Assembly: GCA_965197745.1 (NCBI GenBank)
Contig: CBDANS010000007.1
Span: forward strand, 800,001 to 864,000
Reading direction: 5' to 3'
Source of the DNA: Opitutales bacterium
Lineage (GTDB): Bacteria > Verrucomicrobiota > Verrucomicrobiia > Opitutales > PNEW01
DNA: 64,000 nt
Both the position numbers and the translations under genes were made by a program. A model generated the notes under the pieces. It did not search any database. It saw only the letters and a list, made by a program, of their open reading frames with translations, and was not told where the DNA came from. The stretch's first letter is position 1. The number at the start of each line of letters is the position of its first letter. Positions 1 to 55,068 of the stretch are shown here, one piece after another.

Positions 1-234
1 CTTTTAAAGCCTAAACGACTGTGGGGATGATCATGGTTATAGGTCTGGCGCCATTGTTCGATTACAACTTGTGCTTCAGCCACGCTGAGCAACACTTCAC
101 GGTTCAAACACTCATCGCGTAAGCGGTTGTGAAACGACTCGATGAAACCGTTTTGCCAGGGACTGCCCGGATCGATATATATCGCCTTGATCTTTTTGTC
201 GGACAACGACTGCTGCACTTGATGAGCAATGAAT

Positions 235-266
235 GGCTTCGCATGTCGTCGCTTCGCTCCTCGGAA
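235..266 (-). mobile_element. 32-nt hairpin micro-insertion (TWCCGAR family) in the DNGS-E-F codon of IS copy 1
   Basis: AGT G[TTCCGAGGAGCGAAGCGACGACATGCGAAGCC]A TTC where AGT GAA TTC is expected. Confidence 0.85.
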
Positions 267-394
267 CACTGCCGTTGTCACTACGGATATAGCTGGGAGC
301 TCCCTCCTTTTCAATGGCCTCGCTAAGCACAGAGAGGACATCCGATGAGGGGAGTTCACGAGCGACCCGGATATCCAGACATTCACGCGTATAT

Positions 395-437
395 GGCTTC
401 GCTTCGCTTGAGTGTCGTCGCTTTCAGCTCCTCGGTA
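395..437 (-). mobile_element. 43-nt hairpin micro-insertion (TWCCGAR family) in the ID-E-Y codon of IS copy 1
   Basis: GAT G[TACCGAGGAGCTGAAAGCGACGACACTCAAGCGAAGCGAAGCC]A TAT; IS copy 3 has uninterrupted GAT GAG TAC here. Confidence 0.85.
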
Positions 438-866
438 CATCGATCAGAGTCATCATCTTTAATGGACCGCCATGGTCTGTGCGATCATGGACAAAGTCCC
501 AGGACCAAAGGTGATTGCGACCGGTTGCTTTAGTAGGCGACCCCGTAGAGACCCCTTGACGGTGTCTACGCTTTTTAGGTGGCTTTACCTGCAACCCTTC
601 TGAACGTCGTACCGCCTGAACAAACTTCCTGTTTGTTGTCCAGCCTTCCTTTACGAGCAAGGCACGGATGCGCCGGTAACCGTAGCAGGGATGTTCCCAG
701 GACAGGGTTATAATCCGCTCGGCCAACCGCTGAGCTTTCTTACTGGCCTGCTTGGGCTGGTAGCTGAAAGTTGACCAACTGAGGCTGAGGTAGGAACAAG
801 CCCTTCGCAACGAGCACAGCCCTCTCTCAGCCGCATCTTTTACTACTCGCTTCTTCTGCTTGGGGC

Positions 867-1133
867 TCACCACTTTTTTGACAGCGTTTCCTCCATTACC
901 TGATTCTTAAGCATTTGATCAGCGAGCATCTTCTTCAACTCGGTGTTTTCTTTTTCCAGCTCTTTAAATCGCTTCGCATCGGCTAGTTCCAAATTGCCAT
1001 ACTTTTTACCCCAGCGATAGAAGGTCTGTTCACTCACGTTGTTGCCTCGGCAGATTTCCTCTACCGTTTTTCCGGTATCGGCTTGCCGCAGTATTGCGAT
1101 GATCTGTTCTGTTGTGTATCTTTTTCTTTTCAT
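867..1133 (-). CDS. IS3 transposase OrfA (HTH)
   Basis: MKRKRYTTEQII...SEQTFYRW...LKKMLAD; ends at the A6G frameshift window overlapping orfB. Confidence 0.93.
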   Translation of the reverse strand: MKRKRYTTEQIIAILRQADTGKTVEEICRGNNVSEQTFYRWGKKYGNLELADAKRFKELEKENTELKKMLADQMLKNQVMEETLSKKW

Positions 1134-1204
1134 GAGGTTATCTGTTTATCCCGATAACCTCTCTCTGTTAATGATACCATTTTTGGGGGTCACTCCAAGT
1201 CCCT

Positions 1205-3235: not shown

Positions 3236-3391
3236 CTTCGTCTGCCTCCTCGTCTTCGTCCTCTTATACCCTAATTACTTAATAATAAGAGTTATTAAAT
3301 CTAAAACTGTTTATCAAACTTCCCAGCGGACGCGACGACGCGCGTCCCTCCGGAAAATCAATAAAGGGTGGGAGGCAGACGAAGACGAAGA
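3236..3391. repeat. Composite intergenic repeat: inverted CTTCGTC/GACGAAG arrays around a REP-like palindrome (3327..3351)
   Basis: CTTCGTCTGCCTCCTCGTCTTCGTC ... CGGACGCGACGACGCGCGTCCCTCC ... GAGGCAGACGAAGACGAAGA. Confidence 0.8.
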
Positions 3392-15890: not shown

Positions 15891-16015
15891 TAAGTTGGAT
15901 TATTATTCTCTTCGGTTTCTTTGACAGCGTAAGTATCTAAAAAGAGCGAAAGTGAAAACTTACACTTATTATTTGCCAGGGAGATAAATCTGAGACTATA
16001 GCTCAATCTTCCTAA

Positions 16016-16345
16016 CGGCCACGACGACGCGTAGCCCTCCAGAATGAGAACAAATGGGAGGGCCTCGCGTTGTCGTGGCCGTGGTTTAAATATTTAAAAC
16101 AAGAGAATGAATAATTAATTATTACAGAAAGAGGATAGTTTGGAGGGATGCGTATAGCCTGTCGCCCATAGTCCCGCGGATGCGGGACGACGGCTGGTCG
16201 TGTCCGCTTAGGTGCATGAATTTACTGCAGGTAGCTAATTACTGGATAAAAATTATACTCATTGTCCTTTCATTTTGTGCTTCTTGTGCCTCTTGTGGCT
16301 ATCTTAATCGAGGATGAAGACGAAGAGGCAGACGAAGACGAAGAT
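16016..16345. repeat. Composite intergenic repeat: REP-like pair, REP with nested insert, TTGTGCC/GTGGCT repeat (empty allele), GACGAAG array
   Basis: Collinear similarity with 23665..23962 and 26868..27102. Confidence 0.85.
16158..16197 (+). mobile_element. 40-nt CCTGTC...GCTGG micro-insertion in a REP loop
   Basis: GGAGGGATGCGT ATAG[insert]TCGTGTCC versus empty GGAGGGACGCGC GTCG TCGCGTCC. Confidence 0.75.
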
Positions 16346-16355
16346 AAATAGAATA

Positions 16356-17978
16356 TTAAACTTCCAGGGCCATGCCACCACTACCGGTGTCCGCGCCGCC
16401 AGCCAGCTTGCCACTTTTAGGGTCGATAGTTATGGCATGGACCAAACCTAATCCACCGTGACTTTCCGGCATTCTTTTAACGGGATGCTTTTTTCGAATT
16501 TCTTCACAAACAAAATCAGGAATACGGGCCTGGCATTTAATTTCATCACCCTCGCAGTCAAATCGGGGTAGATGAACCGCGTCACTAATGCTCATATTAA
16601 AATCAAGCACATTGAGAATCACTTGAAGGATTGAAGTAATAATGCGGGTCGCGCCGGGTGCGCCGATAATAAGGAGTGGTTTGCCGTCCTTATAAATGAT
16701 GGTTGGCGCCATTCCGGTCGTGCGACTTTTACCCGGAGCCATTGAGTTAGGATGACCGGGTAGAGGATGGTAATTGATCATTGAATTATTATACATAAAC
16801 CCCATGCCCGGAGTAATGACTCCCGATGACATACCAAGCGAGTGGGTGAGTGCCACGCAGTTTCCTATGTTATCGACAACACTGACATGCGTGGTGTCTG
16901 GTGATTCAGACGCGGTGGAAGATACATCAATGGGCAGACCGGCGTCGATGTGCTGACGCCACTCATGGGCGCGCTCTTTTGATACCATCCAATCCAGTGG
17001 CACCTCGACGAATGTAGTATCAGCTAAATGTTTATTGCGATCAGCAAAAGCTGCTTTCATTGCCATCGAAACAAGATAAATATAATCGGCGGAGTTATGA
17101 TCAATTGATCCCAGATCATATTCTTCCAGTATGTTAAGAATAGCCAATAAGGTGGGACCGCCATGTGGGGGTAGAACAGTGCTGAGTGTAAAACCGCGAT
17201 ACGTGCCGGTGAGTGCCTCGTCTTCACGGAGCCGGTAGTCTTTTAAATCCTCGTCAGTAACAAAACTGTCATTGGCTTCCAGGTCCTTAATAATACGTTT
17301 TGCTAACGCGCCATCATAAAAGTCATCCGGACCTTCTCTCGCGAGATGTTGCAAGGTGCGAGCGTAGTCTGGATTGCGCAATAGTTCGCCGGCATCGTAA
17401 GGGCTGCCGTCATTTTTCAGGTAAATCCGACTGGCTTCCTTATTTTCCACTATATAGTCAAGCATTGTGGAAGCTTCCGGGAACTTGGCTTTAACTTTCC
17501 ATGAATTTGCCAGGGTAGAATTAACCATAAATCCTTCTTCGGCAATCCGAGCTGCCGGGCCGATTGCCTGCTCCCAGGAAAGGGTGCCCCATCGTTCCAA
17601 CATGGTTGACAAACCTCTAACCGTTCCCGGCGTGCAAATAGCCTGGTATCCGGATTCGTTAACTTTTCCTTCTAAAAAGTAACCCCACCCATCGGGGTTT
17701 GGCCGGATAACCTTATCTTCCCACATTGCGGGATCAACTTTTGACCCGGCTAAAGCAGGGGCGTCCAGGACTATGGTTTCTATAGTTCCATCTGTAGAAA
17801 CGGGTGTCGAATGCAGGGTTAAAAGAATATAACCTCCTACACCGCAACAGTGAGGATCAATGACCGTTTGAACAAAAGCGCAGGTCACGGCCGCATCAAT
17901 AGCATTACCACCGTTCATTAAAACTTTAGCTCCTTCCTCCACTGCTTGTGGTTGCGGCGCGACAATCATATTGTTCAT
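16356..17978 (-). CDS. ggt: Gamma-glutamyltransferase
   Basis: GGNAIDAAV, TTHVSVVD autocleavage Thr, GAPGA. Confidence 0.92.
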   Translation of the reverse strand: MNNMIVAPQPQAVEEGAKVLMNGGNAIDAAVTCAFVQTVIDPHCCGVGGYILLTLHSTPVSTDGTIETIVLDAPALAGSKVDPAMWEDKVIRPNPDGWGYFLEGKVNESGYQAICTPGTVRGLSTMLERWGTLSWEQAIGPAARIAEEGFMVNSTLANSWKVKAKFPEASTMLDYIVENKEASRIYLKNDGSPYDAGELLRNPDYARTLQHLAREGPDDFYDGALAKRIIKDLEANDSFVTDEDLKDYRLREDEALTGTYRGFTLSTVLPPHGGPTLLAILNILEEYDLGSIDHNSADYIYLVSMAMKAAFADRNKHLADTTFVEVPLDWMVSKERAHEWRQHIDAGLPIDVSSTASESPDTTHVSVVDNIGNCVALTHSLGMSSGVITPGMGFMYNNSMINYHPLPGHPNSMAPGKSRTTGMAPTIIYKDGKPLLIIGAPGATRIITSILQVILNVLDFNMSISDAVHLPRFDCEGDEIKCQARIPDFVCEEIRKKHPVKRMPESHGGLGLVHAITIDPKSGKLAGGADTGSGGMALEV

Positions 17979-23664: not shown

Positions 23665-23962
23665 CATCGTCTTCGCCCATACCTGTCTAAATACTTAAAT
23701 TTATAGGTAGTATAATTAAGACTATTTTTCAAACTACCCAACAGACGCGACGACGCGCGTCCCTCCAGAAAAGAACAAATGGGAGGGCCACGCGTCGTCG
23801 TGGCCGCTTAGGAGAATGATCATACAATTGAGATAAATTTAAATAGGATAAAGATTATACTCAAGACACTTTCATTTTTGTGTATCTTGTGCTTTTGGAA
23901 GATGTCGCCCTGCTATTGCAGGACTCGGAAGTGGCTATCAAATCGTGGACGAAATCGAAGCT
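23665..23962. repeat. Composite intergenic repeat (REP pair plus TTGTGC/GTGGCT repeat carrying a micro-insertion)
   Basis: Collinear with 16016..16345, including the GGATAAARATTATACTCA spacer. Confidence 0.85.
23897..23930 (-). mobile_element. 34-nt TWCCGAR-family micro-insertion in an intergenic repeat
   Basis: TAGCCAC[TTCCGAGTCCTGCAATAGCAGGGCGACATCTTCC]AAAAGCAC versus empty TAGCCAC-A-AAAGGCAC. Confidence 0.8.
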
Positions 23963-26734: not shown

Positions 26735-26939
26735 CGGTAATAATTATTTCAAACAGTCTCCCGGTGGCGGAGACTGTGCCGGGTTACACAAAAGCTAGAA
26801 GTGAACTAAGACACAGAAAAAGCAAGAGAGATTTTAGAGGAAGAGCCCGTGTCATCTCGCGGAAAGTGGAGGGCCACGCGTCGTCGTGGCCGTGGTTGTA
26901 ATATTTAAAAAGATTAATAAAATGGAGGGACGCGCAATG

Positions 26940-27019: not shown

Positions 27020-27053
27020 GGAAGATGTCACCCTGCTGTTGCAGGGTTCGGAA
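27020..27053 (-). mobile_element. 34-nt TWCCGAR-family micro-insertion
   Basis: TAGCCAC[TTCCGAACCCTGCAACAGCAGGGTGACATCTTCC]ATAT; stem changes are compensatory relative to the 23897 copy. Confidence 0.78.
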
Positions 27054-27173
27054 GTGGCTATCAAATCGTGGATGAAGACGAAGAAACAGACGAAGACGAA
27101 GATTATTATTGATATCATTCCCATCCAATCATCCAGGCATCCATCCTTCCACTTTTGTGAATTTTGTGCCTTT

Positions 27174-27196
27174 GAAAGATCTCGCTACACTCGGTA
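27174..27196 (-). mobile_element. 23-nt minimal TWCCGAR-family micro-insertion
   Basis: TAGCCAC[TACCGAGTGTAGCGAGATCTTTC]AAAGGCACAAAA versus empty TAGCCAC-A-AAAGGCACAAAA. Confidence 0.75.
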
Positions 27197-27376
27197 GTGG
27201 CTATTCTAATCGAAGACGAAGACGAAGACGAGGAGGCAGACGAAGATACTAATTATTGCATAGCCCAAGAGGAATGGTGCGACCATCTGAAATTGTCAGA
27301 GTAGAGGAAAATTTCAAATCCGGGATATGTATCCTGAATCCGACTCGTGAATACAGCTGGTCCCTATCTTAACCCT

Positions 27377-36365: not shown

Positions 36366-36895
36366 CTATTCGGGGGCCAATTTCATATCACAGAACCAAT
36401 AGGCTAAGACCATTAATTAAGCAAATCCCTGATTGCGCAATGGCTGGATTTAATTCGGTGAATAAAGAAATAATAGAAACGGATCTTCCCACCCGTCGTT
36501 TAGGAAAGACCTGATCGGACCCCGTATTTCGTATCAAATTTTAAGTGAGAGAACTACCGGGTGTTAATGGTTTTAGGATTGATGTATATGAGAGATCTTG
36601 GCGCAGTGAGGGCGTAGCCCGAACGCGGCCAAGAGCGGAAAGGAATGTGACAAACTCTTGTGGGCTTTTAAAGCCTAATCGACTGTGGGGATGTTCATTG
36701 TTATAGGTCTGACGCCATTGTTCTATTAGCACTTGCGCTTCAGCCACGCTGAGCAACACTTCACGGTTCAAACACTCATCGCGTAAGCGGTTGTGAAACG
36801 ACTCGATGAAACCGTTCCAGGGACTGCCCGGATCGATATATATCGCCTTGATCTTTTTGTCGGACAACCACTGCTGCACCTGATGAGCAATGAAT

Positions 36896-36927
36896 GGCTT
36901 CGCATGTCGTCGCTTCGCTCCTCGGAA
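36896..36927 (-). mobile_element. 32-nt TWCCGAR micro-insertion in the DNGS-E-F codon of IS copy 2
   Basis: Identical to 235..266. Confidence 0.85.
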
Positions 36928-37055
36928 CACTGCCGTTGTCACTGCGGATATAGCTAGGAACTCCCTCTTCATCGATGGTTTCGCTGAGTACCGAGAGAAC
37001 ATCGGTTGAGGTGAGCTGTCGAGCTACCCGGATGCGTAAACATTTACGCGTATAT

Positions 37056-37098
37056 GTCTTCGCTTCGCTTGAGTGTCGTCGCTTTCAGCTCCTCGGTA
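37056..37098 (-). mobile_element. 43-nt TWCCGAR micro-insertion in the ID-E-Y codon of IS copy 2
   Basis: One substitution relative to 395..437. Confidence 0.85.
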
Positions 37099-37527
37099 CA
37101 TCGATCAAGGTCATCATCTTTAGCATACCGCCATTGTCTGTACGATCATGGACAAAGTCCCAGGACCAGACGTGATTGCGACCGGTTGCTTTAGTAGGGA
37201 GCCCAGTAGAGATCCCCTGACGGTGTCTACGCTTTTTTGGGGGCTTTACCTGTAAGCCCGAAGAACGTCGCACTGCCTGTACAAATTTCCTGCTTGCCGC
37301 CCAACCTTCTTTCACCAGCAAGGCACGAATGCGCCGGTAACCGTAACGGGGATGTTCCCAGGACAAGGTCAAAATCCGCTCGGCCAATTGCTGAGCCTTC
37401 TTACTGGCCTGCTTGGGTCGGTAGCTGTACGTTGACCAACTGAGGCTGAGATAAGCACAAGCCCTCTAAAACGAGCACAGCCCCTTCTCAGCCGCATCTT
37501 TTACTGCTCGCTTCTTCTGCTTTGGGC

Positions 37528-37794
37528 TCACCATTTTTTTGAGAGCGTTTCCTCCAACACCCGAAGCTTGAGCATTTGATCAGCGAGCATCTTCTTCAGC
37601 TCCGTATTCTCCTTTTCCAGCTCTTTAAATCGCTTCGCATCAGCCAGCTCCAAGTTGCCATACTTTTTGCCCCAGCGATAGAAGGTCTGTTCACTTAGGT
37701 TGTTGCCGTGGCAGACTTCCTGCACGGTTTTGCCCGTATCGGGCTGCCGCAGTATTGCTATGATCTGTTCTGTTGTATATCTTTTTCTTTTCAT
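37528..37794 (-). CDS. IS3 transposase OrfA
   Basis: Near-identical to 867..1133; A7 slippery site. Confidence 0.9.
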   Translation of the reverse strand: MKRKRYTTEQIIAILRQPDTGKTVQEVCHGNNLSEQTFYRWGKKYGNLELADAKRFKELEKENTELKKMLADQMLKLRVLEETLSKKW

Positions 37795-38794
37795 TGAGGT
37801 TATCTGTTTATCCCGATAACCTCTCTCTGTTAATGATACCATTTTTGGGGGTCACTCCATGCCGAATTATACCCGACGGTGCTCAGTCTCGGTGGGGTCC
37901 ATTTAGGAGGTGCGCAGAACGGTCTGGGTATAGAGGGTGATGATGAAAGGGCTGCGGACATGGTGGAAACTGCCTGTCGTTTGGGCATAACTCTTGTCGA
38001 TACTTCGCCCCTTTACGGAAGAAGTGAATACCGAGTCGGAATAGCATTAAAAAGAAATAAATTTTCCGACCTCATAATATCAACTAAAACGGGCACTCAT
38101 CCGGAACGTCAATACAGTTATTCTAATGAGGATCTTCGCTGGTCATTTAATAATAGTCTGCGCATGCTGGGCCGAATATGTGTGGATGTAGCAATGATCC
38201 ACGATCCACCCAGTATGCAACCTGTATTTAAGTCGGGTCATGGATTTGACACTATGGAGGAGCTGCGAAAAGAGGGTAAACTGCGTTATATTGGGCTCGG
38301 CGTTCGGGATCACTCATTTCACATTGAGGCCATCAAAGCGGGTAAAGTGGATGTCATTCTCACTTACGGAGATTTCAATCTAGTTCGAAGAACCGCGCGT
38401 TCTCTTATTGACATGGCCTACAATGAAGGGGTGGGAGTATTTCTCGGTTCACCTCAAATGCTTGGACTGCTTGCTCGTGGTGAGCCCGCACATGTTGCGA
38501 AGGAACAATTAAATCTTACTAATTGGTTTAATGATGGGGATTTTAAAACAGCTCAGGAGTGGTGGTTGTGGTGTCGCGAGCGTGATATACAACTCAGGCA
38601 TTTGAACATGCGTTATATCATGAATAATCCCAAAATAGGATGTGTTCTCACGGGGGGGGGCGACAGTAGAAGAATTAGAACAAAATATTCACGAGGCACT
38701 GACACCAATTCCAAAAGATATATGGAATGAAGCAATGGAGAGGATTGTCATGCTGGATGAAAAAGCTTCGCGCTGAAATGACAAGAAACACATA

Positions 38795-39557: not shown

Positions 39558-39672
39558 CGGCCACGATCAGCCGTCGCCCCGCAACAGCGAAGCTATGGCC
39601 GACAGGCATTGCCTGGCCCACCAGAATGAAAACAAATGGGAGGACCACGCGTTGTCGTGGCCGAAGACGAAG
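39558..39672. repeat. Inverted REP-like pair, one with a nested 40-nt CCTGTC insert (39567..39606)
   Basis: Shares the CAGAATGARAACAAATGGGAGG spacer with the pair at 16016. Confidence 0.8.
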
Positions 39673-42489: not shown

Positions 42490-42739
42490 ATCTTTAATTG
42501 TTAGAACAGTTTCATCACATAATATAATTTATAAAAATTTAGTCAACGCATCTCATTGTGACTTCATAAATAACTTGTAGTATGTTGAAAAACAACATTT
42601 TATAAATATCAGAAAAAGGTGATGATGACCTTGCTTAAAGTAGGTTATATTAATAGTGCAGGGTGGACGCAGTGGTCGTGACCACGAAAACTGGTCCACT
42701 TGAAAAGTTAGTCTGGTCCAACTAGAAAGGACACAGACA

Positions 42740-43006
42740 ATGAAAGGCAAAAGATACACGACCGAAGAGAAAATACGGATGCTGCGCCAGGCGGACAAAG
42801 GGAAAACGATCCTGGAAGCATGCCGCGAGAACAACATAAGCGAACAGACCTTCCACCGCTGGAAACGTGAGTTTGGGATGATTGATGTCAACCAGGCCAA
42901 GCGGATGAAGGAGCTCGAGAAGGAGAACGCGCGGTTAAAACGGATGCTGGCGGACAAGATGCTGGGGATAGAGATCCTGCAGGAGACCCTCGAAAAAAAA
43001 CTGTAA
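42740..43006 (+). CDS. IS3 transposase OrfA
   Basis: MKGKRYTTEE...SEQTFHRW...ENARLKRMLAD; A8 slippery site. Confidence 0.93.
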   Translation: MKGKRYTTEEKIRMLRQADKGKTILEACRENNISEQTFHRWKREFGMIDVNQAKRMKELEKENARLKRMLADKMLGIEILQETLEKKL

Positions 43007-43981
43007 GCCCTGGGCACAAGCGGCAAGTGGCAGAGAGACTTGTGACTCGGGGCCAGTGTTCGATGCGAGCGGGGTGCCGGTACTTTCGGCTGCACCGTTC
43101 CACCTATGCGTATAGGGCCAAGCATCCGGATGCCTGGCTAACGAAACTAAAAGCGGCAGTAAGGCGGTTATCACGGCAATACGCGAGGTGGGGCTATCCC
43201 AAGATCACGAAGCTGTTGAAGGACGAAGGCTGGCAGGTGGGTAAACGTCTCGTGCAAGGTCTGCGACGTGAACTGGGTCTGGCGATCCCCCCACGCAAGC
43301 CAAGACGCCGGCGCAGGGGTGTCTGCACCGGGCTACCGACAAAGGCCGAACATCCCGACCATGTTTGGACCTGGGATTTTATCCACGATAAGACGGTTCG
43401 CGGCGGCAGTCTAAAAATGCTGACCGTGCTCGATGAGTACACCCGCGAGTGCCGGGTGATCCATGTTGATCGCCATATCAATGCGGAAACGGTGCGCGGT
43501 ATCATGCAAAAACTGCTCGACCGGCATGGGCCGCCAAAATATATTCGTAGCGACAACGGTTCCGTTCCGAGGAGCGAAGCGACGACATGCAAAGCCATTC
43601 ATTGAAAGCCAATTGAGAGCCTGGCTAACTGCGATGAAAATCAAAACCCTCTATATCGAACCAGCAAGCCCTTGGCAGAACGGATACATTGAATCGTTCC
43701 ATGCCCGTTTTCGCGAGGAGTGTTTAAACCGTGAACAGTTATGGACTTTGACCGAAGCCCGCGTGGTCATCGAAGATTGGCGCTGGCTTTACAATCATGT
43801 CCGACCCCACCGCAGCCTCGGCAACATCACTCCACGGCACTTCACTGAAAACCTCAATACCGAAGGCTCGGGCTCCATTCGGGCTACGCCCTCATTGCGC
43901 CCAAGCCTTGACTTCCTCTACCAACTTAACTTCAACATTAACCTCTCCAGACTAACTCTCCCGGTGGACCAGTTTGTGTAA
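43003..43981 (+). pseudogene. IS3 OrfB frameshifted only by a 32-nt micro-insertion
   Basis: WTWDF, VLDEYTREC, SDNGS[insert]FIE, PWQNGYIESF; no other lesion seen. Confidence 0.85.
43565..43596 (+). mobile_element. 32-nt TWCCGAR micro-insertion in the DNGS-E-F codon of IS copy 3
   Basis: TCC G[TTCCGAGGAGCGAAGCGACGACATGCAAAGCC]A TTC; 31/32 identical to the insert in copies 1 and 2. Confidence 0.85.
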
Positions 43982-44085
43982 CCCGACCAGCAGAGACAGT
44001 GACGTCGAGCCAAGGGGGCTGGATCTTGACAATAACTATCGGCCTCTATTTTGTGCCGCTGTGCGAAAGTTTGATTATTAACGCC

Positions 44086-49525: not shown

Positions 49526-49537
49526 GGTTTTATATCA

Positions 49538-49571
49538 AGGATGAAGACGAAGAGGCAGACGAAGATGAAGA
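49538..49571. repeat. GACGAAG array
   Basis: GGATGAAGACGAAGAGGCAGACGAAGATGAAGA. Confidence 0.7.
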
Positions 49572-49631
49572 ATATTGCAAATCACCATACCTATTTCCAG
49601 CGTCCTTTAGGTTTAAATAATTGACAATAAG

Positions 49632-49910: not shown

Positions 49911-49980
49911 CGGCCACGACGACGCGTGGCCCTCCCTTTCATCAATCCCCTTCTGGAGGGCCACGCTCCGTCGTGGCCGC
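49911..49980. repeat. Inverted pair of GGAGGGCCACGC-type REP palindromes
   Basis: CGGCCACGACGACGCGTGGCCCTCC ... GGAGGGCCACGCTCCGTCGTGGCCG. Confidence 0.82.
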
Positions 49981-50052
49981 TGGGAAGACCGAATAAAATT
50001 TTTTAGCTATTTAAAGGAGACAAACGCAGATGAAGAAAGTGAGTAATCTCAT

Positions 50053-54956: not shown

Positions 54957-55068
54957 CTTCGTCTTCGTCCCTCCTCTTTATTCTTTTCCTGGAGGGCCAC
55001 GCGTCGTTGTGGCCGCAGGGAATATCGAGATATAATTTTTAGCTATTTAAATGAAGCAGACCAAGACG
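54957..55068. repeat. Composite repeat: CTTCGTC array, REP palindrome (54991..55015), degenerate GACGAAG
   Basis: Same modules as 3236..3391. Confidence 0.72.

Follow-up and report, generated by a model that had tools for sequence, protein, structure and literature searches.

How does one short block of DNA come to occupy the same codon in transposase genes whose products are less than half identical? The question is raised by three IS3-family elements in a stretch of 64,000 nt (the window) from an Opitutales genome, which is available as a 4.45-Mb assembly of 7 contigs that is 92% complete. Copy 1 (1..1197, minus strand) is truncated by the start of the window and belongs to lineage A2. Copy 2 (36512..37859, minus strand), whose ends were set by comparing seven A1 copies, belongs to lineage A1, and copy 3 (42673..43989, plus strand) to lineage B1. 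Each carries a micro-repeat, s2, within orfB, at 234..266 (minus strand) in copy 1, 36895..36927 (minus strand) in copy 2, and 43565..43597 (plus strand) in copy 3. Copies 1 and 2 carry in addition a second micro-repeat of 44 nt, s1, at 394..437 and 37055..37098, respectively (both minus strand), the latter at the sequence LID-E-Y.

An earlier note on the window had described the block in copy 3 as an insert of 32 nt (43565–43596) shared by divergent elements. This block does recur, at 235–266 and 36896–36927 on the minus strand, with one mismatch in each case, and it was matched in 0 of 100 shuffles. It also lies at the identical glutamate codon (DNGS-E-F) despite the divergence of the OrfB proteins, which are 46–48% identical between lineages A and B and differ, for example, in having HGPPKYIRSDNGS in copy 3 as opposed to EGAPSYIRSDNGS in copy 1. 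The inverted repeats differ as noted: copies 1 and 2 have the ends TGGAGTGACCCCC...GGGGTCCGATCA, whereas copy 3 begins with TGGTCGTGACC....

Copy 3 is 1317 nt in length with ends TGGTCG...CGACCA, as determined by BLAST and end pattern, and a BLAST search of the genome with this copy yielded nine copies at 99.6–100% identity. Direct reading and flank comparison identified the two halves of a 4-bp target duplication, GCAG, at 42669..42672 and 43990..43993. The orfA gene (42740..43006, plus strand, from the list of open reading frames) encodes 88 amino acids with an HTH_Tnp_1 domain (Pfam PF01527, E 3.6e-20). A run of eight adenines read directly at 42993..43000 (plus strand), in the overlap between orfA and orfB, is likely to be the −1 slippery site of copy 3, by analogy with established IS3-family biology. 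The rve domain encoded by orfB is divided by the micro-repeat. The 5' part (43027..43564, plus strand) encodes HTH_21 (PF13276) and profile positions 2–76 of rve (PF00665) and ends in ...YIRSDNGS, and the 3' part (43598..43981, plus strand), which lies in a different frame as seen from the open reading frames, encodes rve_3 (PF13683, E 1e-26) and contains the region expected to hold the catalytic glutamate. The host element is assigned to the IS3 family by the helix-turn-helix of orfA, the rve DDE core in the −1 frame, the A-rich slippery overlap, the TG...CA ends, and the target duplication of 3–4 bp. As had been reported, the ends and duplication of copy 3 are intact, the larger insert (43/44 nt) of the other copies is absent from it, with GAT GAG TAC uninterrupted at that place, and its orfB has no other lesion. 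Removal of the insert columns leaves 354 open codons, as in insert-free copies.

Comparison of filled and empty alleles, along with membership in the repeat family described below, placed the s2 unit of copy 3 at 43565–43597, that is, as 33 nt of the form T...CA in place of the AG of a GAG codon. The presence of the insert at this codon therefore stands, but a plain insertion of 32 nt does not, as the 33 nt take the place of two bases, AG or AA, and so lengthen the gene by 31 nt. The reconstruction of GAATTC as the target in all three copies is likewise contradicted. Empty alleles are known for each of the lineages A, B, and C, and they read TCC GAG TTT in the lineage of copy 3, AGT GAG TTC for type A in a relative, TCG GAG TTT for type C in a relative, and GTG AAT TC or GTG AGT TC in distant A-like copies. 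The same footprint was found at five sites in the IS elements (s0, s1, s2, sX, and s3) and at one tRNA-linked unit, for which the empty state was taken from the adjacent tRNA gene. Filled alleles have the form S-[T...CA]-W and empty ones S-AR-W, so that two target bases are replaced by the unit.

In the genome, BLAST and MAFFT alignment identified 79 IS copies from these lineages that are near full length, with s2 filled in 71 and empty in 8. Four of the empty ones form a lineage termed E, three are distant and A-like, and the last has TAG at the codon. The 32-nt string, allowing up to 3 mismatches, has 73 matches in the genome, all 73 of them at the s2 site of orfB. Of 201 sampled Opitutales genomes, three contain the string: this one, with 73 matches, and those of two species from a sister genus, with 12 and 14. 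The s1 micro-repeat is present in 32 of the 79 copies and is in frame except for one TGA, and sX (44 nt, at PW-Q-NG; 10–12 of 79 copies) is in frame and stop-free. The frame is broken by s3 (37 nt, at LRD-E-C; 8 of 79 copies). The s0 unit (25 nt; 6 of 79 copies) lies immediately 3' of the A run in reverse orientation. Combinations of filled sites are mixed between lineages: none, s2 alone, s1 with s2, s2 with sX, s2 with s3, sX with s3, and all four. One distant copy has a singleton insertion of 28 nt (alignment columns 324–352), which is not a repeat unit.

At s2, the 31 nt gained shift the frame and thereby sever the integrase core between its second Asp and its catalytic Glu. With the core severed, filled copies are predicted not to make transposase. 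As judged from the reading frames, the micro-repeat disables the transposase of most copies of several IS3-type lineages, while a few copies remain intact. Among these are the four copies of lineage E, which have no insert and in which both orfA and orfB are open.

The insert is a unit of a lineage-specific, REP-like family of hairpin micro-repeats that is otherwise intergenic. A looser scan of the genome defined the architecture of the family as T[AT]CCGAG followed by a short hairpin, then (C)GACG or GACA, and, after a few bases, a closing CA. The strict pattern matched 101 units, as compared to 1 for the same pattern read backwards, which served as a control. The unit is preceded by G or C in 92 of the 101 cases and followed by T or A in 90, and only one unit of the 101, namely s0, lies in a long open reading frame. 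The arms of the hairpin covary among unit variants, with stems of 2–6 bp (such as GGGC/GCCC, CG/CG, and TCCCGC/GCGGGA) and loops of GAA, GAAG, or NNNN, and the units end in ...TTCCA, ...GCCA, or ...TCCA. A pattern scan of the window located a free-standing unit of this family (TTCCGAG, hairpin, CGACATC, TTCCA) at 23896..23930 on the minus strand. Six of the 201 Opitutales genomes, from three families, have 37–132 strict matches, one more has 11, and the others have 0–7. Composite arrangements of units were also seen in the genome. A 20-kb region compared between two relatives, G032 and G060, for filled and empty intergenic units proved to be a paralogue-rich gene family that lacks clean synteny.

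Some units lie 3' of tRNA genes. When the replacement rule was applied to units 3' of tRNA-Asn and tRNA-Gln, the sequence restored was GGTTCG-AA-TCC..., which corresponds to the tRNA T-loop and 3' end. Rfam returned nothing above threshold for the tRNA-linked units except tRNA, with RtT remaining below threshold (23.7 bits versus a cut-off of 45, E 0.22). RAYT proteins were considered as movers of the family and rejected, as no unit occurs within ~1.5 kb on either side of the seven best-scoring Y1_Tnp loci in six genomes. Y1_Tnp has one match in genome G000 and 4–46 in the other REP-rich genomes.

How the 33-nt unit came to be shared by lineages A, B, and C is addressed by its relationship to its flanks. 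The insert is 32–33 of 33 nt identical in every lineage pair, whereas synonymous sites in orfB are saturated between A and B (pS ~0.8), and the divergence of the insert does not track that of orfB. The nearest 129 and 79 nt on the two sides are 47% and 58% identical between A and B, and long flanking identity, which the earlier note had named as a sign of ordinary recombination between IS copies, is absent. Conservation of the insert between such flanks excludes ancient neutral co-inheritance and indicates that no long recombination tract is involved. The lineages themselves diverged as working genes, as seen from dN/dS ratios of 0.145 between A1 and A2 and 0.25 between E and B2.

Short tracts of foreign sequence are evident in several copies. 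Painting of B-type copies at 77 sites informative for B1 and B2 revealed many patches of 1–4 sites from the other lineage and several mosaics. An A'-type copy (C7:1673308-1674707) contains ~75 nt of B2 sequence whose start falls among the first 11 nt of the insert and whose end lies in conserved sequence. In G032, three loci are of type B upstream and type A downstream of the insert and one is of type A upstream and type B downstream, with the reservation that all genomes here are metagenome assemblies and chimeras could be assembly errors.

The history of copy 3 provides a further case. Lineage B1, to which it belongs, consists of nine filled copies, and lineage E of the four insert-free ones. 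Outside the insert, the consensus sequences of B1 and E, which mask private changes of single copies, are equal at 1260 of 1261 positions. The single substitution is the C of a TTC codon at 43600 (plus strand), 5 nt 3' of the insert, where E has TTT. The other filled copies likewise have TTC, and we read this position as co-converted with the insert, a sign that had been sought. The nearest markers that distinguish E from B2, at −14 and +13, are unconverted in B1. Given this near-identity and the open frames of E, B1 equals E plus a patch of at most ~56 nt and, as judged from these sequences, arose very recently from that intact lineage without the insert. At alignment columns 301–303, about 750 nt upstream of the insert, a complex haplotype divides both lineages (two and two copies in E, five and four in B1). 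Its presence in both fails the four-gamete test and points to recombination between these columns and the insert. B1 probably reached its at least nine loci either through transposition with E transposase acting in trans or through conversion of E copies that were already dispersed. The 4-bp duplications are still in place around two B1 copies, each with a sequence of its own (GCAG and CTTC), which is compatible with both routes. Supply in trans is plausible in view of the four intact, insert-free copies that are otherwise identical.

We consider it fairly probable, on this evidence, that gene conversion spread the disabling micro-repeat among the IS lineages and that transposase could come from intact copies. 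In this reading, the 33 nt of the hairpin unit take the place of AG or AA at the glutamate codon of DNGS-E-F in orfB, and short-patch gene conversion or recombination would then copy the unit from one IS copy to another. The sharing of the unit by A, B, and C would reflect this same copying, and the intact E copies would provide transposase for the filled ones. Of the earlier proposal of homing or gene conversion between IS lineages, conversion is borne out by the patches, the chimeras, and the linked T-to-C change. Homing, in the sense of a nuclease-driven bias, is not. In G060, a B-like lineage is empty in nine full-length copies (1286–1287 nt) in the same genome as filled IS copies; of the five empty copies read, four are B-like with GAG TTT and one is type-C-like. 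The nine empty copies argue against strong drive.

Several observations sit less easily with spread by conversion. IS3-family transposases are generally considered to prefer acting in cis, and trans-mobilization alone then fits poorly with nine filled versus four empty copies in B1 and E and with 71 filled copies among the 79. As the flanks of A and B are only 47–58% identical, homologous conversion of an A or B copy that had no insert would require microhomology. Two inserts are present in each of ~25 near-identical A copies, yet a search of the 92%-complete assembly yielded no intact type-A copy, and the 4-bp flanks are identical in only 7 of 40 B-type copies.

The strongest alternative is that some repeat-moving machinery recognizes G|AR|TTY (Glu-Phe) and struck DNGSEF separately in A, B, and C, with conversion accounting only for later shuffling. 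Evidence that such insertion takes place comes from a different IS family. Outside the genomes described above, the core string of the unit recurs in another Opitutaceae genome, where a 44-nt relative occupies TATG|AR|TTTGG (K-Y-E-F-G) in a transposase fragment identified as IS5-family by NCBIfam (transpos_IS5_1, E 2.3e-20), the same fragment having no match in Pfam. The relative replaces the glutamate codon and is in frame and stop-free, and it occurs at the same sequence in a related metagenome contig. As this context has no homology to IS3 elements, the unit there did not arrive by homologous conversion from an IS3 copy, and de novo insertion at GAR TTY does occur. Furthermore, all s2-type contexts have the form G|AR|TT[TC], and E contains only two GARTTY sequences, both on its coding strand, so that repeated independent hits at one codon are not very improbable. 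The filled type-C allele also has its own TTT, while filled B alleles have TTC. Against this stands the identity of the 33-nt variant in A, B, and C together with its absence from the rest of the genome (73 of 73 matches at s2). Any master copy would hence itself be an IS copy. In addition, no copy is filled at the second GARTTY site, in orfA (CGTG AG TTTGG). The two IS5 contexts, which are mutually homologous, perhaps reflect one event, and B1 differs from E by the insert and a T-to-C change to the donor state, which insertion alone leaves unexplained. Independent targeting seems to us unlikely, though it merits serious attention. A bolder proposal, which we offer as speculation and judge doubtful, holds that the family is a still-mobile, enzyme-orphan micro-transposon that swaps out AR between S and W. 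A GARTTY-selecting sub-family would act as an off-switch for IS3 (DNGSEF) and IS5 (KYEFG) transposases, its 33 nt would serve as a homology patch, and drive or host selection would account for the 71 of 79 filled copies. Were this so, IS lineages of <50% protein identity would recombine through a portable patch of 33 nt.

The insert could instead be older than the split of A, B, and C and have been kept for being useful, with conversion homogenizing it. Filled copies could, for instance, produce a truncated OrfAB that binds the IS ends and damps transposition, or they could be a brake favored by the host. The truncated OrfAB would retain HTH_Tnp_1, HTH_21, and most of rve, and the predominance of filled copies (71 of 79), the conservation of the insert far above that of its flanks, and its occurrence in two species of another genus all fit an old insertion. 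The full length of orfB, with the region 3' of the insert included, shows purifying selection (dN/dS 0.145–0.25), which speaks instead for divergence as intact genes. Empty alleles of A, B, and C also count against great age, as do the full-length copies of the B-like lineage in G060, nine of nine of which are empty, and precise reversion from G[33 nt] to GAG is unlikely without an empty donor. We therefore regard an ancient, maintained insertion as improbable.

Least of all do we credit the idea, also raised in the earlier note, that the insert is removable, whether as a GT...AG-like mini-intron, by translational bypass, or by frameshifting with readthrough, such that filled copies would still make transposase. 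The inserts are conserved, filled copies have otherwise open frames, and deletion of GT...AG segments of 42, 31, and 32 nt restores the frame at s1, s2, and s3, respectively. However, several RNA contigs retain the inserts. These come from X21, a single metatranscriptome run that was available as contigs only and was taken from a sample other than those of the DNA runs. Of the contigs listed for it, the three that cross s1 or s2 with no joint keep the insert, and another carries the s3 insert. Among the joints listed at s2, the two sides are separated by AG (depth 22) or AGTTT (depth 3.1). These are empty alleles, which are not derivable from the filled allele by one deletion. The AGTTT form is also found in X1 and X5, runs of unrecorded type that cover this genome region, and a type-A empty allele is found in a third such run, X3. 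The net lengths gained at the five sites (+42, +31, +35, +42, and +23) would furthermore demand a different recoding trick at each.

Individual mechanisms of removal fare no better. Translation through the inserts would need a +1 shift at s2 and readthrough of TGA at s1, and s3 has stops in both frames, so that no single mechanism suffices. Programmed bypass, as in T4 gene 60 and mitochondrial byps, would fit the CCG...CCA arrangement of s2 and of a minority s1 variant but not the common s1 (ACA) or s3. The mini-intron fits the frames at three sites, but sX begins with CT and no RNA splice appears among the joints listed. We know of no GT-AG splicing machinery in bacteria. RNA folding of the insert contexts was no better than that of shuffled sequences (z scores of −0.33, −0.56, and +0.60), and a search for a ribozyme fold or endonuclease likewise gave nothing, as the 33-nt insert has no open reading frame and folds no better than shuffles.

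The micro-repeats resemble REP/REPIN-RAYT systems in having units of 24–44 nt, a hairpin with covarying stems and conserved unpaired flanks, many copies that are nearly all extragenic, and a lineage-specific distribution. They differ from these in their 5' tag, which is T[AT]CCGAG after G or C rather than GTAG, in stems of only 2–6 bp, in the replacement of two target bases on insertion, and in having no unit near the seven Y1_Tnp loci examined. A partial likeness is to the CGTC/TGTC-tagged REP super-family as described by Di Nocera et al. 2013 (PMC3733652). GACG or GACA (the reverse complement of the tag) lies directly against the hairpin here, albeit in a different architecture, and the two share a short ...CCA tail, some intragenic copies, and the lack of a known dedicated transposase. 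The tagged REPs described there have stems of 8–9 bp and loops of 4–5 nt, unlike the shorter stems here, where moreover the tag and CCA tail lie on one side of the hairpin and TWCCGAG on the other. The same source reports many intragenic REPs in Opitutus terrae, of the GTAG type, and IS elements that insert into REPs are also reported (PMC1525189).

Other known systems share particular aspects. As with Rickettsia palindromic elements and in-frame intragenic REPs, tiny repeats are found here in protein genes, with the 44-nt sX and IS5 forms adding 14 stop-free codons. Unlike Rickettsia palindromic elements, s2 (+31) and s3 (+35) break the frame, s1 has a TGA, and the hosts are transposase rather than housekeeping genes. 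Filled copies that have both ends and target duplications beside otherwise identical intact copies recall trans-mobilized, non-autonomous IS elements and MITEs. Here, however, a foreign micro-repeat, not an internal deletion, disables a full-length element, and trans-mobilization is only a candidate route. Presence or absence at one exact site, with a covarying marker 5 nt away, is reminiscent of intron and intein homing. Unlike those, the unit has no coding capacity, ribozyme fold, nuclease, evidence of RNA removal, or evident drive, as illustrated by the nine empty copies of G060. In a literature considered mostly at the level of titles and abstracts, we found no account of the transposase genes of IS elements being disabled by a REP-type unit that passes between IS lineages. 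The present analysis contributes the footprint of replacement, an intact sister lineage whose sole difference is the patch, the conversion patches and chimeras joined at the insert, the IS5 case, and the comparison with RNA-run contigs.

These results bear on how such genomes are read. Many 'frameshifted transposase pseudogenes' of Opitutales are intact genes with one tiny unit inside, and identical inserts in diverged paralogues need not imply homing or splicing. A small repeat has two effects, as a transposase knockout in most IS3-type copies of an IS-laden, symbiont-type genome and as a shared stretch of 33 nt for recombination. REP-like repeats are common, and the five IS sites with exact filled and empty alleles, together with the tRNA-linked unit, supply a testable footprint for how REP-like units move. 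The micro-repeat is a real feature and a member of a known REP-like kind, and it offers clean material for the study of how such repeats move.

The micro-repeats, REP-like hairpin units inserted in IS3-type orfB genes, also occur next to tRNA genes. One or two units of ~100 nt lie 3' of each tRNA-Asn or tRNA-Gln gene at three loci: L001 (G000, the genome holding the window, C6:354400-356600; positions 1118-1300 of the locus), L002 (G000 C5:235400-237600; about 1128-1210), and L055 in G032, another Opitutales genome. The 3' end of each unit is a copy of the T-arm and acceptor 3' end of the adjacent tRNA, including CCA, and every unit contains a micro-repeat of the s2 sub-family (s2 being the 33-nt insert of orfB), placed precisely within the T-loop (GGTTCG|..|TCC). 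A sister genus also keeps the unit linked to tRNA-Asn. These units resemble tRNA-linked repeats like rtT of E. coli, although their match to Rfam RtT falls short of the threshold (E 0.22).

Among G000 copies of the intact, insert-free IS3 lineage E and the near-identical, s2-carrying lineage B1, two orfA haplotypes were found at alignment columns 301–303, differing by a 1-nt indel and two substitutions. The first leaves orfA and orfB as separate frames (orfB, 354 codons), and the second yields one fused 415-codon frame. Each haplotype is found both in copies that carry the insert and in copies that lack it.

Within the window, a second intergenic repeat family (motif ...GGCCACGACGACGCGTGGCCCTCC...) recurs at 3290-3372, 15979-16081, 23705-23806, 26840-26892, 39611-39663, 49953-50030, and 54989-55066. 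Short repeats rich in GAAGAC/GACGAA (family D1) recur at several gene ends (16306-16362, 27052-27252, and 49533-49589) and may be coding tails rich in Asp/Glu.

Throughout G000 there is a composite MITE-like repeat, starting TTGTCATTGCGAGG... and ending ...GACATCTTCCATTCCAGG (for example, C6:596300, C7:745831, and C7:2099202). It contains two tandem hairpin modules of the micro-repeat family, and an inverted copy (CCTCGCAATGACAA) is often close by. G038, from a different Opitutales family, has a high-copy intergenic repeat, TACCGAGGAGCGGATGCGACGACACCTCAACGAGC..AGCGAGAATAACAACC, at about 80 loci, which closely resembles sX, a 44-nt insert of the IS copies. Free-living relatives of the IS inserts therefore exist in other families.
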